Of a stretch of DNA of 64,000 bases, positions 1-58,490 are shown piece after piece; within the stretch, counting starts at the first letter, position 1, and every line of letters begins with the position of its first letter. Source of the DNA: Alphaproteobacteria bacterium (GTDB taxonomy: Bacteria; Pseudomonadota; Alphaproteobacteria; Bin95); NCBI GenBank assembly GCA_964291285.2, contig OZ219787.1:1312001-1376000 (forward strand). The letters run 5' to 3'. A model generated the notes under the pieces. It made no database searches. It was not told the DNA's origin and was given only the letters and a program-made list of their open reading frames with translations. The position numbers and the translations under genes are program-made.

Positions 1-271
1 TCCCGCCCGCGCCGGCCCGGTGCGGAACGACCCCGATTCAGCCGACAGACGAGGTGCGCCCTGCGCCTGCCTCGCGCACGCGCAATCAGGCGCGCGAACC
101 GCGCCGGCGCAATGGCGCGCCCGCGCCCGCCCGCGATTGCGCGCGAATAAGGGTCGCTCCCAAGCCGGGACGGCATGGCCGTCAAACCGAAGCGTAACCA
201 AAGGGGATTATCCGTTTGACTAAATATCAGCCCGTCTCCTAGCCTGTGCTCTTCACAGCGGGAGATCAAGC

Positions 272-1652
272 ATGGCGAGGAAATCTGATAGGGTAGAAGG
301 CAGGCGACGCAGCGGCGACGCAGCGGCGACGCAGCGGCGACGCAGCGGCGACGCAGCGGCGACGCAGCGGCGACGCAGCGGCGACGCAGGAAGCCAACTG
401 GCGCAACCGCACCATCTGGACGCGCGACAATCTCCATGTCCTGAGAGGCATGAACAGCGCCACGGTCGATCTCATCTATCTCGACCCGCCCTTCAACTCC
501 AACCGCACCTATAGCGCACCCATAGGCTCGGAGGCGGCCGGGGCTGCCTTCAAGGACTCATGGACCTTCGACGACGCGGACCGCGTCTATCTGGCACTGC
601 TGCAAGAGCGTGACCCGACGACTTTCGCCATAATCGACGCGGCCCGGCTGGCGCACGGGCGCGGCATGGCGGCCTATCTCGGCATGATGGCGCAACGCCT
701 CGTCGAAATGCGGCGTGTCCTGAAGCCGACCGGCAGCATCTATCTGCATTGTGACCCGTTCGCGTCGCATTATCTCAAGATGCTCATGGACGCGATTTTC
801 GGACGCCTTAATCACCGGAACGAGATTATCTGGTGCTATACTGGCCCCGGCTCACCGCATATGCGCCAGTTCAACCGAAAGCACGATACAATCCACTGGT
901 ATTCAGTCGGCGAGACATGGACCTTCAATGCCGACGCCGTGCGTATTCAGCACCATGGCAAGACCAAGGCGAATTTCAAAGACGGTTTGCGCGGTTCTGG
1001 ATTTATCGAGGGCGAATATGGGCTGACGGACGGCAAAGTCCCTGAAACATGGTGGCCGCAAGAGAAAGGAAATGGACTCGCCATAGCGCCCCGCCAAAAG
1101 GCGCAATATGTCGGCTATCCGACGCAGAAGCCGCTTGCCCTTCTGGACCGCATCATCAAGGCGTCGAGTAACGAGGGCGATGTCGTGCTGGACCCATTTT
1201 GCGGTTGCGCGACGGCCGCCGTGGCGGCGGAGCGGCTACAGCGCCAGTGGATCGGCATCGACATTTCCGCGAAGGCGGCCGAGCTCGTCACGACGCGCCT
1301 GCAAGGCATCCTCGACGAAATCCCGCTCTACAAGACCGGCGATGTTGTCCACAGGACGGACCAGCCGGGCCGCACGGACCTGGGAGACCTTCCCCACTAC
1401 CGGACGCACCTGGACTTGCTCTACGGCCAGCAGGAAGGCTTTTGCGGCGGTTGCGGGGAGCATTTCCGCAAGCGCAATCTGACGGTGGACCATATCGTCC
1501 CGCAAGCGCATGGCGGGACCGACCACCTTGAGAACCTTTGGCTGCTGTGCGGCGCCTGCAATTCGTCGAAGGGAACGCGCTCGCAAGAGCAATTCCTGAA
1601 AGAGCGTATGCAGAAGCGCGCCGCCCTGTTCCCGTGGCTGATAGAGGCGTGA
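272..1652 (+). CDS. Beta-class N6A/N4C DNA methyltransferase with C-terminal HNH endonuclease; frameshifted in 5' tandem repeat (catalytic ORF 450-1652)
   Basis: DPPF motif precedes YPTQKP...DPFCGCAT. C-terminal CxxC...DHIVP...GG...NL...CxxCN. The conserved N-terminus NRTIWTRDNLHVLRGM lies in frame upstream of ATG450 with no start codon. RBS GGGAG and ATG272 are in another frame. Confidence 0.88.
303..389 (+). repeat. 11-bp tandem repeat GGCGACGCAGC x ~8
   Basis: 7 perfect units at 303-379 plus 10/11 of an eighth, counted directly. Confidence 0.97.
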
Positions 1653-2621
1653 CTAGTATGGCCGCGCCCCGCTCGCCAGCCCGTTCTCGGCAATCAGCCG
1701 GGCGTAGGTCAGGCGCTTCCCGACCATGCCGGCCGCCAGTCCCGCCATTTGTGCCAGCGTCCCGGCTTCGCGGATGTTGTGCCGCCCGGCGAACTCCGCG
1801 ATGTAGCGGTGAAGGTGCTTCGGCGAGAACTTGTGATAGACGCCCTTGTGCGCCCGCTTCAACATGGCCCAGAAGCTCTCGATCCCGTTGGTATGCGCCT
1901 GCTGGCGGACATACTCGCCAGCGGAGTGATTGACCGCTTCATGCTGAAACCACACTTGCAGCGCCCGATAGACCGTCGCCTCGTCCGAATAGACCGTCGT
2001 GCCGATGCGGGCGTTGTGAGCGGCGAAGCCTGCCAGCGACGGCGCGTCCGCGTGCTGGACATGGCGGGCGCGAACCTGCTTCGTGCCCCGGTCCTTCACG
2101 CCAACGACAATGTCCTTGCCGACAGCGCCGCGACCCTCAAGGCTCTCCCGCTTCGCCTTGTGCATGTTCTTGCGCAGCCCGCCCAGATAGACCTCGTCCA
2201 CCTCTACCGGCCCGTCCATGGGCGGCTCGTCGTCGCGCTTGAAGGCTTCGCGGATGCGCTGGAGCATGAACCATGCGGTTGCCTGCCGGACGCCTATGTC
2301 CCGGCCCAGCTTCACGCTGGAGACGCCCTTGAGCGAAGTCAGGTGCAGGTAGATCGCCCAAACCCACTTGCGGAACGAGAGCTTGGACCGCTCCATGACG
2401 GTGCCGATGCGGACGCTGAAATGCCGCTTGCAGCCGGGGCAGTAGTAGGGCATCGGCGGGTTGCCGGTGCATTCAATCGTCTCGGTATGGCCGCAGCGCG
2501 GGCAATGGCGACCGTTCGGCCAGACCTTCGCCTCAAACCATTCGCGGGCGCTTTCCTCGGTCGGGAACATCTCTCCCAACTCCATGATGGTCACGCCTTC
2601 GCGGTAGTGCTTGCCAGCCAT
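1653..2621 (-). CDS. IS1595-family (ISXO2-like) DDE transposase
   Basis: Zn ribbon CPRCG...CPGC; VEVDE, YSDE, HTNGIESFW, Y..EF..RHN motifs; GGAGG before ATG2621. Confidence 0.93.
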   Translation of the reverse strand: MAGKHYREGVTIMELGEMFPTEESAREWFEAKVWPNGRHCPRCGHTETIECTGNPPMPYYCPGCKRHFSVRIGTVMERSKLSFRKWVWAIYLHLTSLKGVSSVKLGRDIGVRQATAWFMLQRIREAFKRDDEPPMDGPVEVDEVYLGGLRKNMHKAKRESLEGRGAVGKDIVVGVKDRGTKQVRARHVQHADAPSLAGFAAHNARIGTTVYSDEATVYRALQVWFQHEAVNHSAGEYVRQQAHTNGIESFWAMLKRAHKGVYHKFSPKHLHRYIAEFAGRHNIREAGTLAQMAGLAAGMVGKRLTYARLIAENGLASGARPY

Positions 2622-3047
2622 GACGGCCTCCGTTCCGACTGCTTGAGTCAGAATATGGGGACTCGCCGTCATTTAGTCAAGCGGATAATCCCCTAACCAA
2701 AGGAGCCGCCGCACCCCATGCCCATCATCGACCCCTGGTCGCCGGAGAACATCGAACAGCGCCGCCGGGACAGCCTCGACTGGCTCCAGAGGGCCGGACC
2801 CTTCAATGCGCCCGGAGACGCGGACTTCGCCCCGGACCATGACAATACATGACATTCCATGACATCCACGGTGGAGAGGACGATCCCGCCGCCCCGCGCA
2901 CGCGCGGGCGCGCATTATGCGCAGGCGCGGGACGCTCTTCCGGCAACAGGGGCGTCCGGAACCACGGCCCGACCAAGGAGGCTGCAATGCCTTGCGAACG
3001 ACCGGAGCGGAGACCGGCCTGGAGTGGGCCCCTTGGGTCGGACAGTT

Positions 3048-3842
3048 TCACGCGGCATTTTTGACAGGGTTGCGTTGTTGTTTCTCCTCGAAGCGGTTTG
3101 GGCTCAGATATCCGAGGGCGGAGTGCAGGCGTCTGTGGTTGTAGCTGTCGATGAAGCGTGGCAGTTGCCTTGCGACGTCATCGGCGGTCTCGAAGGCCAT
3201 GGGATAGACGCCTTCGACCTTCAGGGTTTTCATGAAGCTCTCCATCATGGCGTTGTCGTAGGGGTTGGCTCGTCGTCCCATGGAGCCGACCATCCCGTGT
3301 TTGTCGAGCCGGGTCCGGTAGGCATGGGCGGCGTATTGCGAGCCCCTGTCGGAGTGGTGGATGCAGCCGGGCTGAGGGCTTCGGTTCCCGATCGCCTTGT
3401 CGAGCGCCGCGAGCGTCAGGCGCGCGTCGATGCGTTGCCCGAGCGCGTAGCCGACAATGCGGCGCGACCAGGCGTCCATGACCGCCGCCAGATAGACGAA
3501 GCCGTCCAGGATGGCGATGTAGGTCAGGTCGGCGACCCAGAGCCGGTTCGGGCCCTCGACCTCGCAGTCCCGGGACCGGTCCGGGAAGACCGGCCCGTCG
3601 TGGCCGCTGTCCGTGGTGGCGACAAAGCGGCGCTTGCGCGGCGGCTGCAGGGCGTGTTCGCGCATCAGCCGCCTGACCTTCTTGTGGTTGACGGTCCGGC
3701 CCCGGTGGCGAAGTTCCGCCTGCATGCGCCGCCAGCCATAGGCCTCGAACTCGTCCTTGATCTCGTGCATCGCCTCGACCAGGGCGGTGTCGTCGACCGG
3801 GCTCTGCGGCTCGCGGTAACAGGTGGAGCGCGCGATCCCCAT
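3048..3842 (-). CDS. IS3 OrfB, rve/DDE integrase core
   Basis: WVADLTY, HHSDRGSQY, DNAMMESF, YNHRRLHSALGY motifs. Confidence 0.93.
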   Translation of the reverse strand: MGIARSTCYREPQSPVDDTALVEAMHEIKDEFEAYGWRRMQAELRHRGRTVNHKKVRRLMREHALQPPRKRRFVATTDSGHDGPVFPDRSRDCEVEGPNRLWVADLTYIAILDGFVYLAAVMDAWSRRIVGYALGQRIDARLTLAALDKAIGNRSPQPGCIHHSDRGSQYAAHAYRTRLDKHGMVGSMGRRANPYDNAMMESFMKTLKVEGVYPMAFETADDVARQLPRFIDSYNHRRLHSALGYLSPNRFEEKQQRNPVKNAA

Positions 3843-4192
3843 CAGTCGGCATCCTTCGGCAACGGAGAGGCCTCGGGGCCGGCGATCACGGACATGGGCG
3901 CGCGCCTCGACCGCCGTCCTTGCCGCAAAGCCCCCTTTAGGAACTCCAGCTCCGCGGCCTGCCGGCCGACCAGCCGTTCGAGCGTCGCGATCCGGGCCTC
4001 ATACGCCCGGAGCGTGTCAGCCGCCTCGGCCTCCTCATCGAAGGCGCCGGCCTCGTATTTCTCCAGCCACAGCCGGATCAGGGTGCGAGACAGGTCATGA
4101 CGGCGGGCCAGACCGTAAAACGTCTCGCCTGCCAGATACTCCTCAACGACCTGGCGCTTGAAGGCCATGCTGTGCGTGCGGTGCTTCCTCAT
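3842..4192 (-). CDS. IS3 OrfA, HTH
   Basis: HSMAFKRQVV...LARRHDL...W HTH plus coiled coil; TGATG overlap with orfB. Confidence 0.88.
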   Translation of the reverse strand: MRKHRTHSMAFKRQVVEEYLAGETFYGLARRHDLSRTLIRLWLEKYEAGAFDEEAEAADTLRAYEARIATLERLVGRQAAELEFLKGALRQGRRSRRAPMSVIAGPEASPLPKDAD

Positions 4193-4612
4193 CGGCGTCG
4201 ATCCTTCCAATGACCGCGCACCTGTCAATTTCCTACAACAAAACTGTCCGAGACCAGGGGCCCACTCCAGCCCCATGACAAAACATGACATTCCATGACA
4301 TGGCGCGAGGGAGTCGCTGTCGCCCCCATCCGTCGCCCCCAGGCGGAGAAGCCGGGGCCTCAAGCGGCCGGACCTCCGCTGCATGGAGGACCCGGCTCGC
4401 CCTGCGGGCGTCCGGGGCGACGAAAAGGGGGGCGGAGACCGGCCGGGACAGCTTCCAACCGGCGGCTGTCGGTATAGTTCCAAGCGGGTTGCGAGTCTGC
4501 GGGTGCTCTTGCTATGTTGGAGGACTGACGGGTTTGGAGGCTCGTTCAGGCGTCAGGCCGGCGCAGGTTGCCGGTCCAAGGGGATTCAAACAACAATCAT
4601 GGGAGTGCAAAC

Positions 4613-5647
4613 ATGAAGATCGTGCGTCTGGCATGCGGCGTAGCCGCTGCGGCCATGGTGGGAGGCGTCGCCATGTCCGCTTCCGCCGCAGATGAGGTGC
4701 TCTGGAACTTCTCCGCCTGGGGCAAGCCCCGCGCCTTTACCAAGGGCATCGATGCGATGAGCGAGTACCTCGCCGAGAAATCGGGCGGCAACTTCAAGCT
4801 CAAGATCCATTACGGCGAGGCGATCTCGCCTTCGAAAGAGAACATCGACGGCATCAAGATCGGCAGCCACGAAGCTGCGATGATGTGCACCTCCTACCAT
4901 CCCGGCAAGAACCCGGCCGGCACGGTGCTCGACCTGCCGTTCCTGCCCATCTCCGACCTGACGGTGCAGGCGAAGGTGCATGAGGACTTCATCGGGCATC
5001 CGGAGTTCAAGAAGGAGATGAAGCGCTGGAACGCCATCCCGATCTTCTCCGGCATCCTGCCGCAATATGAGGCGATGGGCGTCGGCGACCCGGCCAGGAG
5101 CGCGGCGGACTTCAAGGGCCTGAGGGTGCGCGGCCTCGGCGGCATCGGCCAGTTCTTCGACAAGCTGGGCGCGGTTCCGACCACGGTAACGGCGTCGGAA
5201 AGCTACACGGCGCTCGAACGCGGCACCATCCAGGTGATGACCTTCCCCTACAGCTACGCCTTCGGCGCCTACAGGCACCACGAAGTCGCCAAGTGGTACA
5301 CGGAAGGCATGGCGCTGGGCTCGGTCTTCTGCCCGCAGGTCATGAGCGTCACCGCCTACAACGCGCTGCCGGACGAATACCGGGCGTTGTTCAACGACGA
5401 CATGAAGTGGAACTCCTACAACACGCTGATCTCCGCCTACAAAGAGGCCGACAAGAAGTGGATCCCGATCTACGAAAAGGCCATGGAGCGGGTAGAGTTC
5501 AGCAAGGAGCAACGTGACGAGTTCGTGAAGATCGGGGCGCAGCCCGTTTGGGACGAGTGGGTGGCAAACAACAAGGAAAAGCTTCCCGCTCAAGAGCTTC
5601 TCGACTTCGTTCTCGAGCGTGCCGCACACCACAACAAGGAAGCGTAG
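4613..5647 (+). CDS. dctP: TRAP transporter substrate-binding protein (DctP family)
   Basis: Signal peptide; DFKGLRVR and ESYTALERG motifs; followed by dctQM. Confidence 0.9.
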   Translation: MKIVRLACGVAAAAMVGGVAMSASAADEVLWNFSAWGKPRAFTKGIDAMSEYLAEKSGGNFKLKIHYGEAISPSKENIDGIKIGSHEAAMMCTSYHPGKNPAGTVLDLPFLPISDLTVQAKVHEDFIGHPEFKKEMKRWNAIPIFSGILPQYEAMGVGDPARSAADFKGLRVRGLGGIGQFFDKLGAVPTTVTASESYTALERGTIQVMTFPYSYAFGAYRHHEVAKWYTEGMALGSVFCPQVMSVTAYNALPDEYRALFNDDMKWNSYNTLISAYKEADKKWIPIYEKAMERVEFSKEQRDEFVKIGAQPVWDEWVANNKEKLPAQELLDFVLERAAHHNKEA

Positions 5648-5674
5648 AGGGCCGTAGTCCTCGCAAGTCTGGGT

Positions 5675-5700
5675 GGGGCCGTTCCGTCGCGAACGGCCCC
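5675..5700 (+). terminator. Intercistronic hairpin after dctP (terminator or mRNA stabiliser)
   Basis: 10-bp stem GGGGCCGTTC/GAACGGCCCC followed by a T-rich tract. Confidence 0.6.
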
Positions 5701-5737
5701 ATTCTATTGTTTGCCACAAGGGGAGGAAGCGAAGTCT

Positions 5738-6394
5738 ATGGCTCAAGCCCAGACACGGAACGGGCGCCAGAACAGCACTTTGTCGGCTATAGATCGCGCC
5801 TTCAGTCGCGTGGAGGATGCCGTCACGCTTTTTGCGGCGGCAGTTATCTTCGTATTGATGCTGTTTGTCGTCTGCGAAGTCATCGGAAGATACGTCTTCA
5901 ACAGGCCGATTCCGGGAGCGATCGACTGGATTGAAGTCTATATGGCGATCTTCGCTTTCCTTCCTGCCGCATATGCGCAAAGGCTGGGCGTGCATGTCCG
6001 CATGGAACTCGTCGTCGCAAAGATGCGCGGCAGATTGTTGTGGGCCGTCGAATGTTTCGCCGTCTGCATCGGCGTCGTCTATTGCCTCATCATCATCGAC
6101 AAGAGCTGGGAGCACTTCCTGAGGTCCGTCATAGAAGGCGACAGCACGATCGACGTGCAGCTCCAGACCTGGCCCGGAAAGCTGGTCGTCCCCATTGCGC
6201 TCGTGCTGCTTTGCATACGGCTGATCATCCAGGTGTGGGGCTACGGACGGCTGGCTCTCGATCCCGACAAGGCTCCCCAGGCGGTTCCGGTGATACTGGA
6301 CGCCGCTGAGCATGCGAGAGCCGAGATCGAAGAGGTCATGGGAAGAGAAACCGACGATTCGACGGATCCGCCTGACGGCGGCTCGAAGGCATAG
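5738..6394 (+). CDS. dctQ: TRAP small permease
   Basis: Four hydrophobic segments; RYVFNRPIPG and HVRMELV motifs. Confidence 0.9.
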   Translation: MAQAQTRNGRQNSTLSAIDRAFSRVEDAVTLFAAAVIFVLMLFVVCEVIGRYVFNRPIPGAIDWIEVYMAIFAFLPAAYAQRLGVHVRMELVVAKMRGRLLWAVECFAVCIGVVYCLIIIDKSWEHFLRSVIEGDSTIDVQLQTWPGKLVVPIALVLLCIRLIIQVWGYGRLALDPDKAPQAVPVILDAAEHARAEIEEVMGRETDDSTDPPDGGSKA

Positions 6395-15635: not shown

Positions 15636-16155
15636 TGTCATGAGATGTCATGTTCTGTCATGCGGGGGCCGCGCGGTGTCATGATGTGTCATGATGTGTC
15701 ATGTTTCGTCATGGTCGGCCATGCGAACGGCGCATAGCCCGTAGCCGTTCCGGGCATGCGGCCATCGTTTCAGTCTGGTGCTCCGGGTATTCCATCCGGT
15801 TTCCCCGGCCTTGCATCTTCGGCATGGTCTCTCCTTTCCGTCCGTCGTCGCTCCGTTCTTCCCGCCGCCCGGCGCGGCGGGACCCTTTTTCGCGCGTAAT
15901 GCGCGCCGGCGCCCGCGCGCCCGTCGGCGCGCGTTTCGCGGCGGCGCGGTTTGCGCGCCTGATTGCGCCTGCGCCCGCGAGCCGGACGCAGGGCGCACTT
16001 TGCCCGTTGGCAGAATCGGGGGCTTTTTTCGCGCCGGCGCCGGCGCGAAGGAACGGGGCGGTGTCCGGACGCCGCCTCGTCGGGACCAATATGTCTTCAC
16101 GATTCTCAGAAGTCAAATAATTTTAGGAATTATTACGAAAATTTAACGAACAATG
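15636..16155 (-). repeat. CATGACA-array element, copy C (complete)
   Basis: Minus strand: TTGACT-17-CATATT (16116-16088), GC-rich leader, AAAGGAG, micro-ORF 15825-15709, then 4+3 heptamers at a 10-bp period (15636-15713). Colinear with 57985-58490. Confidence 0.85.
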
Positions 16156-57982: not shown

Positions 57983-58490
57983 TTGTTCTGGAGAAATCTG
58001 GTAATAATCCCTTTACAGGGGTTGCATTTTTAGAAATTATGATATGATAGGTCCGAGGGAAGAGGCATCCGGAGCCGCTTCCTGCCCGTGCCGGCCCGGT
58101 GCGGAACGACCCCGATTCAGCCGACAGGCGAAGTGCGTCCTGTGCCTGCCTCGCGTGCGCGCAATCAGGCGCGCGAACCGCGCCGGCGCCGACACGCGCC
58201 CGCGCCGGCACAGGCGCGCGCAGGATACGCGCGAATTGGGGTCCCGCCGCTCGGGCAACCGGGCGGCGGGAAGAACGGAACGACGACGGATCGAGAGGAG
58301 AGACCGATGCCGAAGATGCAGAACCCGGGAAACGGGATGGAATACCCGGAGCCATCGCCCGAAACGACCACTTCATGCACCAACCGGCTATGGGGTATGC
58401 GTCTTTCGCATGCAGAACATGACATCCCATGACATATCGCGCGGTATCCCGCAGCTCCGCATGACAAAACATGACATATCATGACACATC
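57983..58490 (+). repeat. CATGACA-array element, copy D (complete)
   Basis: AT-rich promoter-like head, GC-rich leader, GAGGAG, micro-ORF 58307-58432, heptamers at 58418, 58428, 58460, 58470, 58480. Confidence 0.85.

Follow-up and report, generated by a model that had tools for sequence, protein, structure and literature searches.

A perfect 11-bp leader repeat as a probable frameshift switch of an IS1595-borne methyltransferase–HNH gene

Introduction

Can a gene whose start codon lies in the wrong frame still be a working gene that is merely switched off, or is it a passenger on its way to being lost? This question is raised by a locus at the beginning of a 64,000-nt stretch of an Alphaproteobacteria bacterium genome (GTDB lineage Bin95; assembly GCA_964291285.2, contig OZ219787.1, positions 1,312,001 to 1,376,000 of the forward strand), which we call the window. 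Here an insertion sequence (IS) of the IS1595 family carries a gene for a DNA methyltransferase (MTase) fused to an HNH nuclease, and a perfect 11-bp repeat separates its apparent start codon from its conserved body. Most of the phase-variable DNA methyltransferases known so far belong to Type I and Type III systems on the chromosomes of host-adapted pathogens. A first-pass annotation, made from the sequence alone, had read the repeat as an ON/OFF frameshift switch resembling those of Type III mod genes. We argue below that the 11-bp tract, which lies in the 5' coding leader of the IS1595-borne MTase–HNH gene, probably acts as a phase-variation (contingency) switch.

The repeat tract and the reading frames

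The features of the leader and of the gene, all on the forward strand, are the following.

260–264 (+): Shine–Dalgarno-like GGGAG, 7 nt upstream of ATG272
272–274 (+): ATG272, putative authentic start codon of the MTase–HNH gene, at present out of frame, being 118 nt (1 mod 3) from codon 390
294–296 (+): TAG closing the MTase frame upstream
297–1652 (+): MTase–HNH reading frame, with N6_N4_Mtase at nt 465–1286, HNH at nt 1443–1604 and the stop codon at 1650–1652
303–389 (+): simple sequence repeat (SSR) tract, (GGCGACGCAGC) x 7.9, perfect, the proposed slipped-strand switch
390–449 (+): conserved N-terminal codons (EANWRNRTIWTRDNLHVLRG) with no in-frame start before them; the alignments to family models and to solved Type III Mod chains begin in this segment
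450–452 (+): first in-frame ATG, an internal Met of the conserved RGMNS, with GAGAGG 1 nt upstream
512–514 (+): stop of the 80-amino-acid (80-aa) dead-end product read from ATG272

Tandem Repeats Finder describes positions 303–389 as a repeat of period 11 with 7.9 copies of the unit GGCGACGCAGC, 100% matches and a score of 174; the 87 nt comprise seven full 11-nt units and 10 of the 11 bases of a further one, close to the eight units counted by the first-pass annotation. This is the top-scoring tandem repeat of the 64-kb window (the runner-up scores 69), and a two-unit pattern of the 11-mer is matched seven times with at most two mismatches, compared to none in 100 shuffles. The tract is free of stop codons in all three frames. 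Its single strand can form an extended, imperfect hairpin (-40.1 kcal/mol, z -5.0). It holds no mismatch over its 87 nt, while synonymous divergence (dS) from the nearest relatives is 0.6–1.2.

The frames around the tract were read correctly at the first pass. Open reading frames (ORFs) run from 272 to 514 (80 aa) and from 450 to 1652 (400 aa). The ribosome-binding site GGGAG and ATG272 lead into the former, which starts with MARKSDRVEG, continues 41 codons past the tract and ends in a dead end. The MTase frame is closed by the TAG at 294–296 and is open from 297 to its stop (a 1,356-nt frame), with ATG450 being the first ATG, GTG or TTG in it. The distance of 118 nt from position 272 to codon 390 leaves the gene currently out of frame with its start; one additional unit would make it 129 nt and the loss of two units 96 nt, both multiples of three. 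The 80-aa product belongs to no Pfam family, and none of 1,153 candidates of 44–140 aa is its homologue at E<=0.01. The non-canonical starts of the enzyme frame, ATC at 414 and CTG at 441, were considered and set aside, there being no Shine–Dalgarno (SD) sequence upstream of either. The same holds for RNA-level explanations of the leader: the only Rfam match in positions 1–4600 is a chance-level microRNA model (E=0.24) elsewhere in the region, and the RNA structure of the leader is unexceptional (z +0.98).

We suggest that translation would start at ATG272, which has a well-placed SD sequence, and pass through the tract to the enzyme core at 390. Gain or loss of whole units by slipped-strand mispairing would then rotate the frame, since 11 nt is 2 mod 3. 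With the present 87-nt tract the start is one base out, and its translation should therefore end in the 80-aa product, which would be the OFF state; with one unit more or two units fewer (also +4, -5 and so on) the start would be fused to the full protein, which would be the ON state. The rate of slippage is likely to be appreciable, which fits both the mismatch-free tract and the hairpin, a structure that could stabilise slipped intermediates in single-stranded DNA. The ON protein would presumably methylate a site set by its central region, and its HNH domain would cut DNA. It is possible, although speculative, that an OFF state eases the entry of a toxic HNH nuclease into an unmethylated host, as the first-pass annotation had supposed. 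In the survey of phase-variable mod genes by Atack et al. 2018 (PMC5909438), the stated criterion for units of at least 3 nt is the presence of at least three of them; the window tract has 7.9, and its non-triplet unit lies inside the frame, between start and core.

The enzyme and the position of its N-terminus

The proposed switch requires that the enzyme be maintained and that its core begin behind the tract. The translation of 297–1649 matches PF01555 (5.5e-46, residues 57–330) and, at the C-terminus, the HNH families PF01844 (5.4e-14) and PF14279 (4e-13), which confirms the fusion proposed earlier: nuclease and MTase domains stand in one polypeptide, with their catalytic residues kept. An alignment of 72 relatives shows no variation in DPPF, in the F-x-G of motif I, in the four Cys of the HNH domain or in D398, N413 and N422; H399 is found in at least 90%. 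Because of this conservation, both the methylase and the HNH activities look maintained.

The protein family is large, with at least 8,000 matches in the first search and 41,162 representatives at E<=1e-3 in a 1.84-billion library, and its N-termini are long enough to cover the codons behind the tract. In 97 of the 120 best protein matches at least 18 residues precede the VDLIY-DPPF motif, typically M-x-x-P-N-W-x-N-R-T-I-W-T-G-D-N-L; the other 23 have 7–17 residues (13 matches), at most 6 (7) or no motif pattern (3). At least 18 residues are likewise present in 102 of the 111 motif-bearing representatives at 50% identity. At the nucleotide level, an ATG stands 66–93 nt before the motif in 65 of 78 gene copies, which come from 73 of 80 related loci; the remaining 13 have a longer leader (3), only GTG or TTG (6), no in-frame start (3) or are cut by a contig end (1).

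Sequence alignments to profiles and to solved chains lead to the same place. The PADLOC MTase_III model matches residues 30–339 of the 297-frame (1.2e-47, with a slightly better value of 1.2e-53 for a Type II MTase model), and the solved Type III Mod chains, EcoP15I Mod (4zcf) and 6k0w_B, are aligned from residues 31–33 of this frame, at profile position 6–7, while the short M.MboIIA chain is aligned from its residue 7. Codon 390, GAA (E), is the first after the tract and opens the conserved stretch EANWRNRTIW. The first-pass annotation had the conserved N-terminus begin at 390, which stands for the core codons; NRTIW itself starts at 405. Based on the N-terminal lengths and starts of relatives and on the PADLOC and solved-chain alignments, the enzyme core is predicted to begin at about nt 390, directly downstream of the tract, with ATG450 an internal codon.

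Selection on these codons points the same way. The ratio of non-synonymous to synonymous divergence (dN/dS) between the window gene and its relative L001 is 0.10 over 411 codons, and against the relative L002 it is 0.057 in the N-terminal and 0.11 in the C-terminal part. For the 18 codons 396–449, which precede ATG450, dN/dS is 0.03–0.10, with 6 synonymous changes as opposed to 1–3 non-synonymous ones. Since dN/dS stays near 0.1 with these 18 codons included, the start-less codons before ATG450 are evidently kept as protein, under purifying selection. Between the window gene and L002 (positions 3561–5039), the N-terminal ~125 and the C-terminal ~190 residues are ~93% identical, while the central ~100–190 residues are unalignable. 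This difference looks like an exchange of target-recognition regions between alleles, as in mod alleles.

Starts and leader repeats in related loci

For comparison we used the 80 related loci, 619,543 nt in total, about 45 of which have Candidatus Poribacteria in their titles; the other titles include Arenicellales, Dehalococcoidia and Alphaproteobacteria, and the relatives come from uncultured metagenome-assembled genomes (MAGs). Two relatives are informative about the start codon. The protein P0005, 74% identical, starts with MARKSSGLERGQSGSPAVREEASRNW (MARKSSGLERG), in frame with the core, and shares MARKS with the window peptide. The MAG locus L002 has the same IS end (22/23), GGGAGG 5 nt before its ATG and a leader alignable to that of the window (TCTGATA...), and its start peptide MSDTLK... 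aligns with MARKSD.... The homology of the window start codon to the in-frame starts of relatives is supported by these alignments.

The L002 leader carries a perfect tract of its own at the same site, the 8-mer GGCAGTCC repeated 8.4 times, and it too appears to be OFF: the start frame ends at a TGA right after the tract, and the ATG is one base out, being 166 nt from the motif where the window ATG is at 193 nt (1 mod 3 in either case). Thus, a comparison with other copies of the element, as envisaged at the first pass, yielded a sister with another unit and the same offset, and no second copy of the 11-mer was found.

Repeats of still other kinds occupy this site, taken as 54–162 nt upstream of the motif. 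The leader of L053 holds (AG)9 and that of L008 holds C8, both in the OFF configuration, with the ATG at 145 and 106 nt from the motif, respectively; L001 holds C9 and C11 and is ON, with its ATG at 231 nt. Two proteins have in-frame leader peptide repeats, AAGSGQR x3 in P0024 and RKPQAAS x2 in P0014, each fitting exactly one 7-nt unit when the unit is read through all three frames; this test is passed by only ~9e-6 of 7-residue and 1.7e-6 of 8-residue peptides, and it recovers the true unit of the window. With a perfect 19-mer repeated four times in L061 (positions 3426–3501), there are eight distinct leader units, of 11, 8, 7, 7, 2, 1, 1 and 19 nt (L001 contributing one for its two C tracts), and none is a multiple of 3. 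The 19-mer contains the ATG of its gene, and the last copy starts the protein; the upstream copies have out-of-frame ATGs ending at stops, which makes them decoy starts and not a frame switch. A helical-phasing or iteron reading of the 11-bp period was dropped because in relatives the units at this leader site are 8, 7, 2 and 1 nt long.

The 8-mer supplies a difference in tract length. The peptide QSGSPAVR occurs once each, in frame, in P0005 and in P0272 (MDNDGTLKEGQSGSPAVRQEANW...), and fits only the unit CAGTCCGG, which is a rotation of the L002 8-mer. Therefore, P0005 and P0272 most likely hold three 8-nt units in frame, in contrast to the 8.4 out-of-frame units of L002; the difference concerns the L002-type tract, and the units of P0005 and P0272 are deduced from protein sequences. 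A between-strain difference in tract length is a type of evidence used in the phasevarion literature (PMC5909438).

The 619,543 nt of the related loci were scanned throughout with the SSR criteria of Atack et al. 2018. The leader windows make up 1.86% of this sequence and contain 6 of its 29 non-triplet SSRs (P=1.4e-5; the six come from four loci and are not fully independent), as well as three of the six tracts of at least 18 nt (P=1.2e-4). Among 77 related copies, a leader SSR is present in all three that are start-less compared to 2 of the 74 with a start (Fisher P=1.4e-4). Taken together, the start homology, the purifying selection, the recurrence of non-triplet repeats and the sister 8-mer lengths give the ON/OFF switch of the first-pass annotation indirect support from several sides; no second allele of the 11-mer was found in the window or among the matches listed.

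A different kind of repetition is seen in L047 (positions 1–6006), where five MTase–HNH paralogues stand head to tail with a 29-nt overlap between neighbours and a 300-nt block recurs every 1,258–1,300 nt at 87–95% identity. These paralogues may be an array of specificity variants, and the four matched stretches of P0122 (1,598 aa) could reflect read-through across an array of this kind.

Weighing the alternatives

Several observations speak against a switch and should be considered together. The 11-mer itself is found nowhere else: its repeat peptide is absent from the best 120 protein matches and was not seen among 18 leader-restricted matches (six viewed in full and 12 as N-termini), and the repeat does not recur in the 64-kb window. 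None of the 22 longer leaders among the 111 motif-bearing representatives has an SSR of period 7, 8 or 11, and the leader SSRs appear to be confined to a subset near the window gene. No sigma-70-like promoter was found upstream of the MTase–HNH gene. In addition, some relatives are decaying. P0272 (362 aa) is in frame at the leader, but the conserved C-terminal and HNH motifs are missing from its last ~70 residues, for which reason it looks frameshifted downstream; its switch would then be ON, with the gene broken further on. The transposase beside L002 is reduced to 54 residues; in L004 the enzyme match is limited to query residues 263–449 and the transposase to 46 residues. In L020 (positions 3607–3623) a C17 run replaces the DPPF codons, reads L-A-P-P-P-P-P and shifts the frame, being either a homopolymer grown from CCN CCN codons or a sequencing artefact.

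These lesions, together with the enzyme match of L010, limited to the C-terminal query residues 296–451, and an internal-Met start called in four of the five closest protein matches, suit the view that the passenger gene is being lost and that the tract is a mutational accident which broke the frame in an unconstrained leader, with no adaptive reversibility. For the window copy, we consider this unlikely. No break interrupts the 1,356-nt frame that follows the tract, the catalytic residues are conserved across the 72 relatives, and dN/dS remains ~0.1 with the start-less codons included; the inverted repeats of the IS are intact and its target-site duplication is perfect. An unconstrained leader would also hardly account for SSR breaks that recur at one site only, are always non-triplet and are present in 3/3 start-less copies, or for perfect tracts kept in two lineages at a dS of ~1 from one another.

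It is less likely still that the gene is always on, an N-terminally shortened active enzyme arising from ATG450, where ribosomes would initiate internally or re-initiate once the 80-aa ORF has ended, which would leave the tract without effect and thus count against the switch. No in-frame start precedes ATG450, the modelled Pfam domain does not begin until residue 57 of the 297-frame, downstream of this ATG, a purine-rich GAGAGG lies upstream of it, and the starts assigned by gene callers to P0002, P0006, P0016, P0018 and P0054 are at the equivalent Met. However, a spacing of 1 nt between GAGAGG and ATG450 is poor, and GAGAGG represents the conserved L-R-G codons; the residue at ATG450 is M, L or I in relatives, with L or I in many of them. 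Moreover, the 18 upstream codons are conserved in the family, are under purifying selection and can be aligned to solved MTase chains, and the in-frame relatives begin upstream.

An assembly or consensus artefact, with a true tract of 6 or 9 units and an intact gene, seems highly improbable. Deposited tracts can indeed be shorter than the lengths given by fragment analysis, as short-read assemblies collapse repeats, according to the account of this problem in Atack et al. 2018 (PMC5909438). Nevertheless, the window tract is just 87 nt long and perfectly periodic, the independent assembly of L002 has the same one-base offset with a different unit, and L053 and L008 are out of frame as well.

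Programmed +1 ribosomal frameshifting from the ATG272 frame into the enzyme frame has the least to recommend it and can be practically set aside: the four OFF alleles (window 272, L002:3464, L053:3467 and L008:3470) are all 1 mod 3 and need the same +1 correction, and the L002 start frame ends at a TGA directly 3' of its tract, but such an agreement of four frames has a chance of 1 in 8, the tracts (an 11-mer, an 8-mer, (AG)9 and C8) share no slippery motif or other recoding signal that we could see, the start frame of the window runs 41 codons beyond the tract, in-frame relatives exist, and Rfam is silent at the leader.

We therefore return to the contingency switch as the probable role of the 11-bp tract.

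The IS1595 carrier and its neighbourhood

The carrier was called a mobile IS at the first pass, and this is confirmed. It is a 2,491-bp IS1595-family element at 203–2693, with the following parts.

195–202 (no strand): left copy of the target-site duplication, TAACCAAA, identical to 2694–2701
203–239 (+): left terminal inverted repeat, with the core GGGGATTATCCGTTTGACTAAAT at 203–225
1653–2672 (-): IS1595-family transposase, 339 aa, convergent with the MTase–HNH gene
2657–2693 (-): right terminal inverted repeat, which holds the only sigma-70-like promoter match, facing the transposase
2694–2701 (no strand): right copy of the target-site duplication, TAACCAAA

The inverted-repeat arms (202–239 and 2657–2694) are 38 nt long and 82% complementary, and their core, the 23-mer at 203–225, matches the reverse complement of 2671–2693 at 22 of 23 positions. 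Since these matched repeats are flanked by a perfect duplication of TAACCAAA, the element transposed as one unit, and the MTase–HNH gene is transposon-borne. The duplication is 8 bp long, the usual figure for the IS1595 family. The transposase matches DDE_Tnp_IS1595 (1.1e-38) and Zn_ribbon_IS1595 (5.4e-08, an N-terminal zinc ribbon) in Pfam and transpos_IS1595 in NCBIfam (183.3 bits, cut-off 75).

The transposase is the only other gene inside the duplication-bounded element, and no res gene is present, the window offering only 202 nt upstream. The stop codons of the two genes abut without a spacer (MTase–HNH 1650–1652 on the forward strand, transposase 1653–1655 on the reverse), with no terminator-like site between them; therefore, convergent transcription could link the two genes. 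An IS1595-family transposase adjoins the MTase–HNH gene in 13 of the 80 related loci, and in 11 of these more than 200 of its residues are aligned.

Neither the MTase nor the transposase has a further copy in the 64-kb window, where tblastn finds this locus only. Among the plasmids of PLSDB, megablast gives no match to the IS. A tblastn search of plasmids with the MTase–HNH protein gives 20 records, none covering at least 80% of the query and all below 60% identity; none of the alignments extends past query residue 366, so that the HNH domain is not reached. Plasmid-borne IS1595 transposases in PLSDB share no more than 43% identity with the transposase of the element.

Beyond the element come genes for an IS3-type transposase, for a TRAP transporter and for a CoA transferase. 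The IS3-type element beside the IS1595 one has HTH_Tnp_1 and rve ORFs on the minus strand and inverted repeats at 3016–3048 and 4241–4273. It is bracketed by 29-nt CATGACA-rich direct repeats (2837–2865 and 4273–4301), and similar CATGACA runs occur at 15676–15703 and 58460–58486. A 130-nt GC-rich stretch just outside the IS1595 element (1–130) has a second copy 58 kb away, at 58080–58209, with 89% identity.

Possible significance

If the proposed switch is real, mobile elements can ferry a stochastic epigenetic or restriction switch between genomes, and the convergent growth of unrelated repeats at one site would provide a clean natural example of selection for mutability. There is also a consequence for annotation: such a switch would be hidden from protein databases, because the start that gene callers assign to these genes is an internal Met.

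Going further, one can suggest, tentatively and with the odds rather against it, a broader scheme in which an IS family carries its own one-polypeptide restriction–modification (R-M)-like MTase–HNH enzyme behind a self-generated contingency switch. Its lineages would have independently grown non-triplet leader repeats of 1, 2, 7, 8, 11 and perhaps 19 nt and would swap the central specificity region, so that the element would toggle genome-wide methylation or cutting, randomly and reversibly, in any host entered. The OFF state would leave more than 1.1 kb of untranslated message, which may alter the antisense pressure on the transposase, coupling the state of the enzyme to transposition.

Comparison with known systems

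The carrier is a genuine IS1595-family element and groups with the passenger-carrying ISs that ISfinder places in this family. Like them it has inverted repeats at its termini, an 8-bp duplication and a DDE_Tnp_IS1595 transposase that begins with a zinc ribbon, and it differs from the known passenger-carrying ones in that its passenger is an R-M-like enzyme which looks phase-variable. In the open-access papers searched we found no description of an MTase–HNH passenger of an IS1595-family IS, of a phase-variable MTase that is IS-borne or fused to HNH, or of a phase-variation unit of 11 bp.

Phase-variable R-M in a single polypeptide is represented by the poly-G-controlled Type IIG enzyme of Campylobacter jejuni, which has an N-terminal PD-(D/E)XK nuclease and a gamma-class MTase and is a chromosomal gene with a homopolymer tract. 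The window gene is similar to it in uniting nuclease and MTase in one chain and in having an SSR in the gene, but its HNH domain is C-terminal, its MTase is beta-class, its repeat is an 11-mer and its carrier is an IS.

The nearest described case is a phasevarion mod gene of Escherichia coli that produces Shiga toxin (STEC), with CAGCGAC[n] just after the SD sequence and ATG, in the account of Atack et al. 2018 (PMC5909438). As in Type III mod genes, the MTase of the window is a beta-class PF01555 enzyme with conserved ends and a variable central target-recognition region, and as in the mod phasevarions, a GC-rich non-triplet SSR directly follows the SD sequence and ATG and would set ON or OFF by frame. 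Units that are multiples of three are absent among the leader repeats described here, as they are from the survey's account of mod repeats (PMC5909438). The likeness proposed by the first-pass annotation thus extends to the Mod-type MTase, and it ends with the system as a whole: this is not a Type III (Mod plus Res) system, as no res gene adjoins the MTase and an HNH domain is fused to its C-terminus instead. The window gene departs from the mod phasevarions further in being a passenger of an IS1595-family element, with relatives in uncultured MAGs rather than in host-adapted pathogens, and its unit of 11 nt lies beyond the range of 1–9 nt, the only unit lengths that the survey searched (PMC5909438). 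What this locus adds to the known systems is a unit of 11 nt, an MTase fused to HNH, carriage by an IS and, in uncultured lineages, the convergent appearance of repeats with different units at one site.

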